This document shows positions 1-18,300 of a stretch of 64,000 nucleotides of DNA, piece by piece. The stretch covers positions 1 to 64,000 of the forward strand of contig CBDUPA010000012.1 of assembly GCA_965368975.1 (NCBI GenBank), written 5' to 3'. A program made the translations under genes and the position numbers. Each line of letters opens with the position of its first letter. Positions within the stretch are counted from its first letter, which is position 1. The notes beneath the pieces were generated by a model. It did no database searches, had not been told where the DNA came from, and was given only the letters and a program-made list of their open reading frames with translations. The stretch is from an uncultured bacterium. Lineage in GTDB: Bacteria; Acidobacteriota; Thermoanaerobaculia; Multivoradales; JAHZIX01.

Positions 1-64
1 AGCACAGGGGCGTCGAGTGGAGCGAGCACAGGGGCGTCGAGTGGAGCGAGCACAGAGGCGTCGA
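1..64 (+). repeat. 24-bp in-frame tandem repeat (HRGVEWSE x2.7) inside the NRPS
   Basis: agcacaggggcgtcgagtggagcg twice, then agcacagaggcgtcga. Confidence 0.9.
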
Positions 65-3000
65 CGACATCGCGGCGCACTGTGCGCGCTTGCGTCGGCG
101 GCCCTTCGACCTCGAGAACGGCCCCTTGCTGCGCGCCGACTTGGTGCACCCGACGGCGGGCGGTGAGGTGCTGGTGTTGACCTTGCCGGCCCTGTGCTGC
201 GACGCGCCGAGCTTGCGCCTGCTGGCGGCGCAACTGGCGCAGGAACTGGCGGCGGGGGCGAGCGCGGCGTCGGCGGACGAAGAGGAACTGCAGTACGCCG
301 ACCTCGCCGCCTGGTTCAACGAGCTGCTGCAAGCCGAGGAGACCGCCCCGGGCCGAGAGCACTGGCAGGCGCTGGAGCTCAGCGGCGTGCAGCCGGCGAC
401 GGTCGAGGCCGAGTTCACGCCGTGCTTCCTACGCTTGGCAGCGCCGCTGCAGCTGCCGCCCGAGATCGACGCCGCTGCCTTCCTGCTCGCCTGCTGGCAG
501 GGCGTGTTGCAGCGCCGCGGCATCGCCGGCCTGGGCAGCGAGCAGCCGGGGGTTCTCGGCTTTGCCGCCGATGGGCGCAAGTTCGCCGAACTTGAGGCCG
601 CCATCGGTCCGCTGACCCGCGTCGTGCCGCTGCCGCCTCTGCCGGCCACCGCGCGCACGCTGGCGCAGGCGCTGGCCGGTGCGGCGGACAGCGTCGCCCG
701 CGCCGTGCGCTTCCAGGACGCCTGTGCCTGGCAGGACCTGGACCTGCCGAGCTACCTGCCCGTGTGCCTCTTCCTGGAGACCCTGCAGCCCGCCCCCGAG
801 GGCGGGCTGCAGCCCGAGCCCGCGGCCGACTACGGCTTCGCCGAGCGCTTCGAGCTCTTGCTGCACGGTCGCCTGCAGACCACCGCCGCGGGGTGCCGGG
901 TCGAGCTCGAGTTGGGCTATGACGGCGCCCGCTTCGACGCGGCGGCGGCGGCGCGGCTGCGTGACGCCTTGGCGTGCTGGATGGATGCCGCGCTGGCGGC
1001 GGCCACGCGCACCCCTGCCGGCGGACCGGCCACGGCCGCGACCACGTTGTTGAGCGAGCTGCCGTGCCTCGGCGCCGCCGAATGGCAGCAGCTGTGCACG
1101 CTCGCCGGTGCCCCTGGGGCGCTAGCAGAAGCGGCGCTAGCACAAGCGGCGCTACCAGCGGTGCCCGCCGGAGTGGTCGAGCGCTTCGGCCAGGCGGTGC
1201 GCTTGCACCAGCAGCAGCCGGCGGTGCGCGACGGCAGCGACCAGCTGACCTATGGTGAACTGGCCCGCCGGGTACGACGCCTGGCGCGCCACCTGCGGGC
1301 GGCGGGGGTCGGAGCCGAGGTCGTGGTTGGCTTGGCCGCCGAGCGCCGGGTCGAGACGCTGCTCGTGCTGCTTGCCATCCTGGAAGCCGGCGGCGCGTAC
1401 CTGCCGCTGGATCCCGCTCTGCCGCAGGCTCGCCACCACGCCTTGCTGCACGCGGCAGGCGCGCGTTTCGTGGTCGGACGCGACCTGCCGGCGCTGCCGC
1501 CCGAGGTCGACGTCATCGACCTGCAAGCGCAGGCGGCAGCGATCGCGGCGCGGGATTCGAGCCCGCTCGACCTCGAGATCGATCCGCGTCAGCTGGCCTA
1601 CGTCCTCTTCACCTCCGGCTCCACCGGCCAGCCCAAGGGCGTGGCGGTCGAGCACCGGCAGCTGGCCGCCTACGTGGCCGCCGCCGAGCAGCGCCTCGAC
1701 TTCGGCCCGCCAGGGGAGCCTGGCGGCACGTTCGCCCTGGTGTCCAGCCTGGCGGCCGATCTCGGCAACACGATGATCTTTCCGGCCCTGTGCCGTGGTG
1801 GCTGCTTGCTGGTGGTGCCCGAGGCGACGATCTCGGACGCCAGCGCCCTGGCCGAGCTGTGCACCGCCGCGGCGGTCGACCACCTCAAGATCGTGCCCGG
1901 CCACCTGCAAGCCTTGCTCGAGGCACCGGGGGCCGAGCGCGTGCTACCGCGTCGGCGCCTGGTCTGTGGTGGCGAGGCGCTGCCGCCGCGTCTGCTCGAG
2001 CGCGTCGCCGAGCTGGCGCCCAGGACCCGCGTCTTCAACCACTACGGACCGACGGAGACGACAGTCGGCGTCGCGGCGGCGGAGATGGCGCCCGGCGATC
2101 CCGTGTCCCTGGGCCGGCCGCTGCCCGGGTGTCAGCTGTGGCTGGTCGATCGCCACCTGCGGCCGGTGGCGCTGGGCGCAAAGGGTGAGATCCTGGTCGG
2201 CGGCGCGCAGCTGGCGCGCGGCTATGCCGGTCGACCGGCCGCGACCGCCGCGCGCTTCGTGCCCGATGCGCTGGGCACCACTGCGCTGGGCACCACCGCC
2301 GGGGGGCGGCTCTACCGCACGGGTGACCTCGGTCGTCTGCGCGGCGACGGCGCTTTTGAGTTCCTGGGACGCACCGACAACCAGGTCAAGATCCGTGGCT
2401 ATCGCGTCGAGCTGGGCGAGGTGGAGAGCGCGTTGCGCCGGCTGCCCGGGGTGCGCGCCGCGGCCGCGCTGCTGCGCCGGGAGGGGCCGGCGGAACTGGT
2501 CGGGTATGTACACCTGGACAGCGAGGTTCACCTGGGGGACACCGCGCGCACGCCGGCCGAGCTGCGCGAACGGCTGGCGGCCGAGTTGCCGGACTACATG
2601 GTGCCGGCCGTCATCGTGCCGCTGGAGAGCTGGCCACGGACCGCCAACGGCAAGCTCGACCGCGCGGCTCTGCCGGCGCCGCCGCGCCCGAACCAGGCGG
2701 CGCACGAGCGGCCGCGCACGCCGGTGGAGGAGCAGGTGACGGAGCTGTGGCGGACGCTGTTCGAACGCGAGCAGATCGGTCTCGACGACGACTTCTTCGC
2801 CCTCGGCGGGCACTCGCTGCTGGCCATGCAGCTGACCGCGCGCCTGCGCCAGGCGTTGGGGGTCGAGCTGGCGGTCGACCAGGTGTTCCAGGCGCCGACA
2901 CCGCGTCTGCTGGCGCGTGCGGTGTCCACGGCGCTGAGCGCACAGGCTTCGTCGGCCGGCGGAGTCGAGGTGGCGCCGCCGATCGAGCGCCGGCCCGAGG

Positions 3001-15300: not shown

Positions 15301-18300
15301 CGGTCGACGAACTGCGCCGCTTCCTCGGGCGCCGGCTGCCCGAGTACATGCTGCCGGCGGTGTTCGTGCCGCTGGCGCAGTTCCCGCGCACGCCCAACGG
15401 CAAGATCGATCGCGCGGCCCTGCCCGCACCCGAGGAGGCGACGGCGCTGCGCGGTGAGTACACACCGCCCCGGGGTGAGCTGGAGACGCGCGTCGCCGAG
15501 GTGTGGGCCGAGGTCCTGGGGCTGTCGCGGGTCGGCCGCGACGAGAACTTCTTCCACCTCGGCGGCCACTCCCTGGTCGCCACCCAGGCGGCGGCCCGTC
15601 TCGCCGAGTCGCTGCCCATTGCGTTGACCGTGCTGTGGATTTTCGAGCAGCCGACGGTGGCCCAGCTCGCCGAGCGGATCGCACAAGAAGCTCCGCCGGT
15701 TGACGAGGGCGAGACCTCCGGGCCGTCGTCGTCGTTGGCGTCGTCGCCGATCCCGCCGCGCCCTTCCGAGGCACCGGCGGTGCTCTCTTTCGCCCAGCAG
15801 CGCCTGTGGTGGCTCGACCGCCTCGACCCCGGCAACCTGCAGTACAACGTCGCGCTGTCGCACTACTGGTCCGGTCCGCTCGACGTCGCCGCTCTAGCCT
15901 ACGGGCTGCGGCGGGTGTACGAGCGGCACGAAGCCCTGCGCACTACCTTCACGCAGGTCGACGACCAACCGCTGCAGGTGATCGCGTCGCGCCCGCGCGT
16001 CGAGCTGCCGTTGCTCGATCTGAGCGCTCTGGCCGCCGCGCCGCGCCAGCAGGAAGTGCTGCGCCTGGCGCGTGCCGAGGCGCGCCGTCCGTTCGACCTC
16101 GAGCGCGGTCCCTTGCTGCGCACGGTGCTGGTGCGGCTGGATGGCGCCGAGCACGCGCTGTTGCTGACCATGCACCACATCGTCAGCGATGGCGTCTCGA
16201 TGTCCATCCTGGGGCGCGAGCTGGGTTATTACTACAACGCTCGCTTGGAGGGTACGGCAGGTGCGGACGCGCAAGCGCCGCCGGAGCCCGCACCGCCGCC
16301 GATCCAGTATGCCGACTTCGCCGCCTGGCAGCGGCGCTGGCTGAGCGGTGAGGTGCTGGAGCAGCAGCTCGCCTACTGGCGCCACCAGCTGCAGGCCACA
16401 CCGGTGCTCGATCTGCCGACCGACCGCCCGCGCCCGCCGCGCCGCCGGCTCGGCGGTGGCAACAGCGCCCACCGCCTGCCGGCCGGGCTGTTGGAGCGCG
16501 TCGAAACCCTGGCCCGGCAGCACGACGCCACCGCCTTCATGGTGCTGCTGACCGCCTACGCCGCCCTGCTGCGCCAGCTCAGCGGGCAACGAGATTTCGC
16601 CGTCGGCTCGCCGATCGCCGGTCGCGACCGCCCCGAGGTCCAGGAGCTGATCGGCTTCTTCGTCAACATGCTGGTGCTGCGCGCCGAGCTGCCGGACGAC
16701 CCCGCCTTCACCGACGCCCTGGCGATGCTGCGCCAGGTGTGCCTGGAGGCCTACGGCCACCAGCACCTGCCCTTCGAGAAGCTGGTCGAGGAGCTGGAGC
16801 CGGAGCGCTCCCTGCGCTTCACGCCGCTGTTCCAGGCTGCCTTCGTGCTGCAGCCGGCCGCCGTGCCGCTGACCCTGAACGGTCTCGACATGCGCCCGCT
16901 GGTGGTCGACCGCGGTGCCGCCAAGTTCGATCTCACCTTGTTGCTGGTGCCGCAGCCCGGCGAGCAAGGGCTGCAGGCGGTGTTCGAATACGATCCGGCG
17001 CTGTTCGACGCCAGCACCACCGCGCGCTGGCTGCGGCGGTACGAGACGCTGCTCGAAGCCGTGCTCGCGCAGCCGGCCGCGCCGCTGTCGACGTTGCACG
17101 GCCTGAGCGCCGCCGAGCGTCACGCCCTGGTGCACGAGTGGGGCCGGCCCTCGTGCGTCGACGTCCCCTGCGCGAGCGCCCCATCGACCCGTGCCGCCGC
17201 CGGCGTCACGAGTGCGCTCGAGCTGTTCTACCGGCAGGTGGAGGCGCGCCCGCACGCGGTGGCGCTGCACCTGCCGTCGAGTGCCGATAATGATGACGGC
17301 TGCCGCGTCATCACCTACGCCGCCCTGGCCCAGCACGCCTGGCGCCTGGCGCACGCCCTGCGCGCCCGCGGTGTGACGGCCGAAAGCGTGGTCGCCCTCG
17401 GTCTGGAGCCCGGTCCCGAGCAGGTCGTGGCGATCCTCGCCGTGCTGGCGGCCGGCGGTGCCTACCTGCCGCTCGACCCGAGCGACCCGAGCGCGCGTCT
17501 GGCGGCGATCGTCGAGGATGCCGGCGCCGAGCTGGTGCTGGTGCGCGGTGGCCAGGGGGATCAGCAGCGGGGCAACCTGCCGGCGACGTTGCCGTCGCTG
17601 GCGGTCGACGACTTCGACGCTCTCGCCCAGATGCCGGCGCAGCCACCCGCGCTGCCGCGAGGGGCGCAGCTCGCCTACGTGATCTACACCTCGGGCTCGA
17701 CCGGCCGTCCCAAGGGCGTGCTGGTGCGTCACCACGAGCTGCTGCGCCTGCTGACCACCACCGAGCCCTGGTTCGCGTTCGGCGGCGGCGACGTCTGGAC
17801 CCTGTTCCACTCCTATGCCTTCGACTTCTCGGTATGGGAGATCTGGGGCGCGCTGGCCTACGGCGGCCGGCTGGTGGTGGTGCCCTACTGGCTGCGGCGC
17901 CAGCCGGAAGCGTTGTACGACCTGCTGGTGCGCGAGCGGGTGACGGTGTTGAACCAGACTCCCTCGGCCTTCCAACAGCTGGCCGCGGTGCCGGCGGCCC
18001 TGGCCCGTCCAGCCGGCGGTGCCACACGAGCTGGTGCATCAGCAGCCGATGCGCTGCGCTGGGTGATCTTCGGCGGCGAAGGCCTGAGTGCCGCGGCGGT
18101 GACGCCCTGGTTGCAGGCGCGCGGGGCTCGGCAACCGTGCCTGGTCAACATGTACGGCATCACCGAAACTACCGTGCACGTCACCTTCCAGCCCCTGGCC
18201 CTGGACGACTTCGCCGGTGCCGAGCCGCCGATCGGGCACACGTTGCCGGATCTCGGCGTGGTGGTGGCGTCACCGTTGGCGGGACTCGACGGCCCTGGTA

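Follow-up and report, generated by a model that had tools for sequence, protein, structure and literature searches.

Reitz et al. (PNAS, 2019) reportedly described, in siderophore nonribosomal peptide synthetases (NRPSs), modules in which an interface (I) domain goes together with a stand-alone beta-hydroxylase. In glycopeptide NRPSs, the last module closes with a condensation (C)-like domain named X, which recruits P450 oxygenases. Here we compare with these and related systems an NRPS cluster located at the start of contig CBDUPA010000012.1 (C12; assembly GCA_965368975.1) of an uncultured member of the Acidobacteriota (Thermoanaerobaculia; Multivoradales). The window, that is, the whole stretch of DNA analyzed, comprises positions 1 to 64,000 of this contig, and the cluster continues on another contig of the same assembly, C14.

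The arrangement of Reitz et al. is cited in PMC12230676, PMC12971057, PMC12628792 and PMC7100376, and antiSMASH 8 contains an interface-domain profile (PMC12230676). In the cyanochelin B pathway, CcsK is a stand-alone Asp hydroxylase and CcsL (BAU16061) is the Asp module (PMC12628792). AMB of Pseudomonas aeruginosa depends on AmbB (A-T-C, where A is adenylation), the Fe/2-oxoglutarate oxygenases AmbC and AmbD, and AmbE (Q-A-MT-T1-C2-T2-TE, where MT is methyltransferase); AmbC and AmbD hydroxylate T1-bound Glu, the in-line MT O-methylates the 4-hydroxyl, and the function of the Q domain of ~460 amino acids is left unassigned (PMC4357302, PMC10880069). SyrP-like enzymes (SyrP/SyrE of syringomycin, CysJ/CysQ/CysH of cystobactamid) hydroxylate carrier-bound Asp or Asn, and in cystobactamid the new hydroxyl on carrier-bound Asn is O-methylated by a separate enzyme to yield beta-methoxy-Asn (PMC7966384).

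Four interface modules in a row with three hydroxylase genes

Five co-directional genes, identified by their Pfam domains, occupy bases 1-29717 of the plus strand of the window: NRPS1, Hyd2, NRPS2, Hyd3 and NRPS3 (Table 1). Each of the three NRPS proteins opens with a domain of ~450 amino acids that matches Pfam Condensation, as does the corresponding domain (I0) of NRPS0, an NRPS encoded on C14. Alignment revealed no His at either catalytic position of HHxxxDG in I0, I1, I2 and I3, and intact C domains at the ends of NRPS1 and NRPS2, as a preliminary description of this DNA had proposed for the three proteins of the window. A His at either catalytic column was found in 0 of 75 aligned I-domain rows. 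The dioxygenase genes that the preliminary description placed at both junctions were confirmed by PF02668 matches, and the third one that it predicted just left of the window was found on C14 (Hyd1). The block of an acidic run followed by LQYxDxxxW...GRxxW, which that description named as shared by the three N-terminal domains, held in part. The acidic run before QYADYAxWQ...xW is particular to I domains, whereas the motif itself is an ordinary C motif that also occurs in intact C domains.

The window starts where C12 starts, inside a 24-bp tandem repeat. The reverse complement of C14:1-54 is identical to window bases 1-54 (54 identical bases), and the minus strand of C14 runs out within a C-like domain, of which it encodes the first 108 residues; these are in frame with the window and overlap it by 17 amino acids. 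The two pieces of I1 are complementary and cover I-domain model positions 5-103 on C14 and 89-445 in the window. The upstream half of the cluster joins on at this repeat, of which 2.7 copies lie in the window. C14 supplies the missing start of NRPS1, the Hyd1 gene and further assembly-line genes. The whole would form a single co-directional NRPS operon, with its downstream two thirds in the window and the remainder upstream on C14.

Read across this joint, the assembly line has ten modules, among which four consecutive interface modules with three hydroxylase genes: FAAL-ACP / C-A-T-Cy-A(Cys)-Ox-C / I-A(Asp)-T-E-C / Hyd1 / I-A(Asp)-T-C / Hyd2 / I-A(DARLLSLMT)-MT-T-C / Hyd3 / I-A(His)-T-(C-A-T)x4-TE. 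These four modules are split, a working C domain ending the previous protein and a His-less I domain opening the next. All four I domains are N-terminal, are followed by A-T, and have the C domain of their module at the end of the previous protein. A hydroxylase gene lies directly upstream of I1, I2 and I3, and I0 lies directly behind the previous NRPS gene.

Specificity codes were read from an alignment anchored on the Thr domain (mafft --keeplength). The code shared by NRPS0 and NRPS1 agrees with DLTKVGHVGK, given for Asp or hydroxy-Asp (PMC10391617, Table 1), and that of the first NRPS3 module with DSALIAEVWK, given for His with beta-hydroxy-His accepted (PMC12283262). The code of the Cy module fits Cys, and a thiazole is therefore expected. 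The code of the first module, DGFSHAVTT, matched no assignable code. In our reading, the NRPS2 code combines Arg at position 239 with an LSL core, which does not identify the substrate.

Table 1. Features of the NRPS cluster and its flanks; coordinates refer to the window unless C14 is named.
Feature	Coordinates	Strand	Details
FAAL-ACP protein	C14		upstream end of the assembly line
NRPS upstream of NRPS0	C14		2923 aa; C-A-T-Cy-A-Ox-C
Module 1	C14		code DGFSHAVTT; acceptor of the fatty acid
Cy module	C14		code DLYNLSMIW; Cys
NRPS0	C14, upstream of Hyd1		2117-aa open reading frame; C-like (I0, VPALISDA), A, T, E, C; code DLTKVGHVG, Asp
Hyd1	C14, directly upstream of NRPS1		TauD open reading frame, 369 aa; E 2e-47
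24-bp tandem repeat	1..64	+	2.7 copies in the window; encodes HRGVEWSE repeats inside I1; assembly breaks there
NRPS1 (window part)	3..4418	+	open at 5' end; C-like, A, T, C
I1	3-1046	+	LPALCCDA at HHxxxDG position
NRPS1 A core	1365-2369	+	code DLTKVGHVG, Asp
NRPS1 T	near 2805	+	GGHSL Ser
NRPS1 C	3000-4340	+	HHIVAD
Hyd2	4509..5561	+	stand-alone TauD/TfdA-family Fe(II)/2-oxoglutarate dioxygenase, 350 aa; PF02668 E 7e-44
NRPS2	5566..11118	+	ATG at 5566; C-like, A with inserted FkbM methyltransferase, T, C
I2	5566-6906	+	SPLMADG at HHxxxDG position
NRPS2 A core	7159-8181	+	code DARLLSLMT
NRPS2 methyltransferase	8482-9111	+	FkbM-type (PF05050, E 8e-18), between A8 and A9 motifs of the A domain
NRPS2 T	near 9478	+	Ser
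NRPS2 C	9658-11025	+	HHIVGD
Hyd3	11240..12295	+	ATG at 11240; stand-alone TauD/TfdA-family dioxygenase, 351 aa; PF02668 E 1e-41
NRPS3	12345..29717	+	C-like, A, T, then four C-A-T modules, TE
I3	12345-13739	+	AAAVADG at HHxxxDG position
NRPS3 module 1 A core	13992-15056	+	code DSALIAEVW, His
NRPS3 module 1 T	near 15561	+	Ser
NRPS3 module 2			code DFWNIGMVH, Thr
NRPS3 modules 3-5			codes DGFFVGGTF, DAFFLGATF, DPFFLGGVF; hydrophobic residues (own reading)
NRPS3 TE	28932-29714	+	
ABC transporter	29751..31451	+	transmembrane region and ATPase; directly after TE; likely exporter
MacB-like permease	31262..33865	+	MacB_PCD and FtsX, two each; true start probably later than 31262
TonB-dependent receptor	33966..36830	-	N-terminal carboxypeptidase-regulatory-like domain
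Second TonB-dependent receptor	C14:20839-23886		past the cluster's upstream end

The cyanochelin B locus on AP017310.1, which reads E-DCL / TauD / I-A-E, resembles this layout in its succession of a terminal C domain, a TauD gene, an N-terminal His-less C-like domain and A(Asp)-T. The CcsL motif LPSLCADA is close to LPALCCDA of I1, and a FAAL start and a Cy module are common to both clusters. However, the clusters are not close. The present one has four successive I modules and three hydroxylases, and one of these I modules combines an unassigned A code with an inserted methyltransferase. AMB shares with NRPS2 a C-ending protein followed by TauD-type genes and a protein with an N-terminal domain, A, MT and T. 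In contrast to AMB, NRPS2 has one hydroxylase instead of two and an A code other than Glu; its last domain is an ordinary C domain of the LCL type, and it feeds a long assembly line. NRPS2 is thus no AMB-type Q-A-MT module, and the two have in common only the core of N-terminal domain, A, MT and T. A relative, G002_C14 (L108 10150-16545), reads C / TauD / TauD / I-A(Glu code)-MT. Because this equals the ambB-C-D-E gene order, it suggests by analogy that the AmbE Q domain may be an I domain. Cystobactamid likewise has hydroxylation followed by O-methylation on the carrier, but CysQ is a separate enzyme, CysH has an AMDH domain, and the available excerpts of PMC7966384 mention no I domain. Overall, the system is of a known kind, and its novelty is modest: an uncharacterized cluster with four I modules in a row and three enzymes, an unassigned substrate joined to an in-line methyltransferase, and relatives whose cassettes serve many substrates.

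Phylogeny and distribution of the I domains

A tree of 149 C-type rows combined the present cluster with seven regions from relatives and twelve named loci; its reference subtypes were taken from these clusters themselves rather than from the curated sets of NaPDoS2 or antiSMASH. All 38 I rows (38/38) fell on one side of a single branch (FastTree, support 100), apart from the LCL (post-FAAL starter included), DCL, E and Cy domains. IQ-TREE with a mixture model, run on 74 of those rows, likewise placed 20/20 I rows on one side (SH-aLRT 100). A check set beforehand asked whether the N-terminal domains clade with starter or LCL domains; they did so in neither tree. Features independent of the profile-based grouping agree, as all 38 I rows lack HH, all 38 are N-terminal in their open reading frame and 32 of the 38 lie behind a TauD gene, which precedes only 1 of 111 non-I domains of the set. 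When the N-terminus of CcsL was included, it fell inside the I clade with all four I domains of this cluster, the joined I1 among them (40 rows, support 100). I0-I3 share 28-33% identity with one another and 16-28% with the cluster's C, E and Cy domains; against other I domains of the tree set, identity reaches ~36% at most. The N-terminal domains form, with CcsL, a clade of their own in the C superfamily, and the arrangement is the one of interface domain and stand-alone hydroxylase that the preliminary description had recognized.

A search of solved structures with the I profile matched PDB 8z0q-8z0s, annotated as a "special condensation domain", for which a literature search found no paper. 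The solved-structure matches also included PDB 4tx2/4tx3, which we take to be the X domain. Like the X domain, the I domain is C-like, without condensation activity, and would bring a trans-acting oxygenase to a carrier-bound intermediate; it differs in its position at the N-terminus of a subunit and in its link to Fe/2-oxoglutarate enzymes, not P450s. A complex prediction of I3 with Hyd3 (alignments of 75 and 98 rows) gave a median score of 0.17 against a mark of 0.32 in a run without controls, and no conclusion for or against an interaction is drawn from it.

A scan of species-representative genomes with Hyd1, Hyd2 and Hyd3 kept 80 loci (best identity 59%) in Cyanobacteriota, Acidobacteriota, Chloroflexota, Gemmatimonadota, Actinomycetota, Bacillota and Pseudomonadota. 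An I domain lies directly behind the query hydroxylase in 65 of these 80 loci, in the order C / TauD / I, an arrangement that is not by chance. Away from locus edges, a C domain ending the upstream open reading frame precedes 94 of 100 I domains, and in 14 of these 94 cases TauD is fused to that C domain. By code, the 105 I modules comprise 67 Asp, 9 Asn, 4 Gln, 4 Glu, 3 His, 7 other single codes and 11 that are unreadable.

Among 41 genomes of the same family or order, our own counted, 17 have such hydroxylases; phylum-wide, 7 of 201 genomes do, one of which is the unpublished G063. Three hydroxylase genes within one NRPS stretch occur in 5 of the 41 genomes, again counting our own, and the arrays of the 4 others comprise four or five I modules each. 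In G015, three hydroxylases accompany five I modules in succession (Asp, Asp, Gln, Gln, Asn). G035 likewise combines three hydroxylases with five I modules (Asp, DAR-type, Asp, His with MT, Asp) and also contains a Cy-A-Ox module, and in G036 four I modules go with three hydroxylases. Since such arrays recur among these genomes, the serial layout is typical of this lineage and not singular. Back-to-back interface modules had been presented as unusual in the preliminary description, and the cluster is less unusual than was held there. A search of the literature, with Reitz et al. 2019, all supplements and cluster databases (MIBiG, BiG-FAM) outside its scope, found no published serial array of I modules, chemically characterized or otherwise.

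Two side observations concern domains of the same kinds. In G015:C5 (L102-L103), one I domain in region 27251-28577 is split in two overlapping frames, possibly by a frameshift or a sequencing error. In the genome studied here, a second NRPS (C17:~67800-83600, plus strand) ends in a C domain fused to TauD (5351-aa open frame), and no I domain was found in the ~31 kb that follow this fusion.

Pairing of hydroxylases with modules and the predicted product

Hyd1, Hyd2 and Hyd3 are 42-50% identical to one another and keep the metal ligands; the H-x-E...H ligands and the Arg are invariant in 98 homologous sequences. In the TauD tree the three enzymes lie apart from one another: Hyd1 among Asp-linked enzymes, Hyd3 in a clade (support 99) tied to His, Gln, Glu and Asn modules, and Hyd2 as sister (100) to a G035 enzyme that stands before a DAR-type module with code DARLVSQMT. 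The NRPS2 A domain pairs with the A domain of this same module (96), and the rows nearest to I2 are I domains of the same G035 cluster, the module's own I domain coming first in one of two trees. Because Hyd2 and the NRPS2 A domain are nearest to one module and I2 is nearest to the same cluster, these affinities suggest that the three parts may have been inherited together. Furthermore, Hyd1 is 49.6% identical to CcsK, and a homologue 50% identical to Hyd2 is named AmbD by its source. NCBIfam returned only weak, sub-threshold hydroxylase matches (GntD, TMLD and clavaminate synthase). A profile search of solved structures with the hydroxylases gave two strong matches, the plant clavaminate-synthase-like At3g21360 and a chain of a sulfoquinovose dioxygenase (PMC12951627), and no NRPS hydroxylase of the I type.

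We consider the following reading, taken as a whole, to be probable. The stand-alone Fe(II)/2-oxoglutarate dioxygenases would dock at the split I modules and act on the residue while the T domain carries it as an aminoacyl thioester, hydroxylating it ahead of condensation by the upstream C domain. Hyd1 would act on both Asp modules, Hyd3 on His, and Hyd2 on the NRPS2 residue, after which the FkbM-type MT within the A domain would O-methylate the new hydroxyl, as the AmbE MT does. The predicted product, plausibly a metallophore, is an N-acylated decapeptide that contains a thiazole and in which four oxygenated residues follow one another.

The assignment of Hyd1 to two modules draws on I domains elsewhere. 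The 9 I domains listed with no TauD gene next to them all belong to Asp modules (one of them a contig-split artefact, one at a locus edge and one with a TauD gene 1.7 kb upstream), and their clusters hold an Asp-linked TauD. Moreover, in 7 of the 9 regions with at least two I domains, the number of TauD genes equals the number of substrate types among the I modules; the two that do not fit are G011_C91, which is cut off at its start, and G174_C6. Because TauD-less I domains are Asp modules in clusters with an Asp-linked TauD and the counts agree in 7/9 regions, we think that Hyd1 would serve both Asp modules. As a general rule, one hydroxylase per substrate type was withdrawn, given that G174_C6 has two TauD genes for two Asp I modules; G002_C14, with two hydroxylase genes before a single I domain, does not fit it either. 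According to a rule of Reitz et al. quoted in PMC12628792, stand-alone enzymes give the 3R configuration. From this rule and the E domain of NRPS0, D-threo-hydroxy-Asp would be expected from NRPS0 and L-erythro-hydroxy-Asp from NRPS1.

The VFDVGANIG motif of the methyltransferase inserted in NRPS2 is intact. Over all annotated regions, an MT is present in 9 of 96 I-A modules compared with 1 of 180 other A domains. Because the loci were picked for having hydroxylases and the related genomes are not independent, this enrichment is an association and not a test. The codes of the nine MT-bearing I modules are of the Asp, Glu, Gln, His and DAR types. The one MT-bearing module outside this group, in L055, was rejected as an I module, since its preceding His-less N-terminal C-like domain scores 114 with the DCL model and 54 with the I model. 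Given the AMB and cystobactamid precedents and the association of MT with I modules, we expect by analogy that residue 5 would be hydroxylated, at the beta or another carbon, and then O-methylated. A second FkbM-type methyltransferase domain was noticed in a 1168-aa open frame of the same genome (G000 C23:70351-70926, plus strand).

As to metallophore features, two Asp and one His I modules are predicted, TonB-dependent receptors lie on both sides and the tail of the peptide is hydrophobic; we saw neither a periplasmic binding protein nor a reductase specific to siderophores. The product may be a new lipopeptide metallophore.

Several observations weigh against the reading that we favor. I0 has no hydroxylase gene of its own, and G174_C6, from the same phylum, has a separate TauD for each of two Asp I modules. 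The NRPS2 code matched no assigned code found in literature searches, and the methylated hydroxyl of AMB is at C4, not at the beta carbon (PMC10880069). Three C-terminal hydrophobic residues and a TE are as like lipodepsipeptide antibiotics as siderophores, and the TonB-dependent receptor genes may be cluster-specific or simply common genome-wide. The groups behind the I clade were first drawn with profiles built from the domains of the window itself, which makes this grouping partly circular. In addition, in 15 of the 80 loci, mostly from Pseudomonadota, an ordinary C domain or nothing at all comes after the hydroxylase, and such hydroxylases can therefore work without an adjacent I domain.

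The alternative that survives best, though we judge it unlikely, is that one or more of the dioxygenases carry out other chemistry, such as the gamma-hydroxylation of AMB or a desaturation, and that the MT may target a side-chain group. AmbC and AmbD hydroxylate C3 and C4 of Glu, with methylation of the 4-hydroxyl (PMC10880069), and the AmbD name borne by the Hyd2 homologue as well as the unassigned NRPS2 substrate would be in keeping with such chemistry. However, the MT spans I modules with five kinds of A code, Asp and His included, so that a target common to all, the new hydroxyl, fits better than a side-chain group. Furthermore, Asp offers only its beta carbon for hydroxylation, NRPS2 has a single hydroxylase, and its terminal LCL-type C domain is not a dehydrating C domain with a second T and TE.

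It is also improbable, somewhat more so, that the I domains are mere structural adaptors for the C/A split, docking the upstream terminal C domain while the hydroxylases find their residue otherwise. The constant feature is indeed a terminal C domain followed by an N-terminal I domain (94/100), no TauD is adjacent to 6 of the 38 I rows in the tree, and Hyd1-like hydroxylases lack a following I domain in 15/80 loci. Against such adaptors stand the TauD genes before the other 32 I rows, the fusions of TauD to the upstream C domain and the near absence of TauD before non-I domains (one case among the 149 C-type domains), together with the confinement of TauD-less I domains to Asp modules in clusters with an Asp-linked TauD and the apparent joint inheritance of Hyd2, the NRPS2 A domain and I2.

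We give no better prospects to the proposal of the preliminary description that exactly three adjacent residues are modified, each by a dedicated hydroxylase encoded just before its module, in an exceptional layout: Hyd1, Hyd2 and Hyd3 do stand directly before an I-A-T module each and are divergent paralogues from different clades, but one dedicated enzyme per residue fails because a fourth I-A(Asp)-T module (NRPS0, with an E domain) precedes Hyd1 without a gene of its own, paired Asp or Gln I modules stand behind a single hydroxylase in relatives too, and 4 other genomes among the 41 have three-hydroxylase arrays comprising four or five I modules. For this cluster, one enzyme per substrate type is a better fit than one per residue.

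Returning to the reading with docking hydroxylases, we extend it only tentatively, and with rather less than even confidence in the whole, to relatives. In this joint proposal, the hydroxylase, I domain and A domain would, in this bacterial order, be a portable cassette whose substrates reach beyond Asp and His to Asn, Gln, Glu and at least four unassigned codes. Up to five cassettes would follow one another with one hydroxylase per substrate type, cassettes with an MT would make methoxy residues, the AmbE Q domain would be an I domain, and the product would contain a methoxylated residue of an undescribed kind. If so, the product of this cluster carries four adjacent oxygenated residues. The relatives show that I-domain cassettes extend well past the Asp and His siderophore cases of the original description. 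Genome-mining rules take such hydroxylases as marks of metallophores (PMC12971057), and a reach past Asp and His therefore matters for them. The cluster lends itself clearly to tests of how hydroxylases acting in trans are directed to their modules. With four I modules and three enzymes in one operon, a substrate common to two modules and an in-line MT in one, it could show whether the I domain or the substrate selects the enzyme. It could also serve to assign a new A-domain code.

Flanking genes and neighbors

The genes next to the cluster are listed in Table 1. On C14, a gene for a flavin-dependent monooxygenase (L003, 18747-20000, minus strand; Pyr_redox_3 with a weak Lys/Orn N-monooxygenase match) lies directly upstream of the FAAL gene and may belong to the cluster. 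Farther downstream in the window, a type I restriction-modification set (47390-55644) comprises HsdM, HsdS and HsdR, with a Fic-like/HATPase_c_4 gene between S and R. The G+C content of this stretch is ~0.59-0.65 compared with ~0.72 in the NRPS genes. Another HsdR-like gene is present on C14 (L004 8336-11308). In the same part of C14 (L004, C14:20001-40000), just past the upstream TonB-dependent receptor, a gene for a TIR-domain protein (5877-6956, minus strand) adjoins a DUF429 gene.

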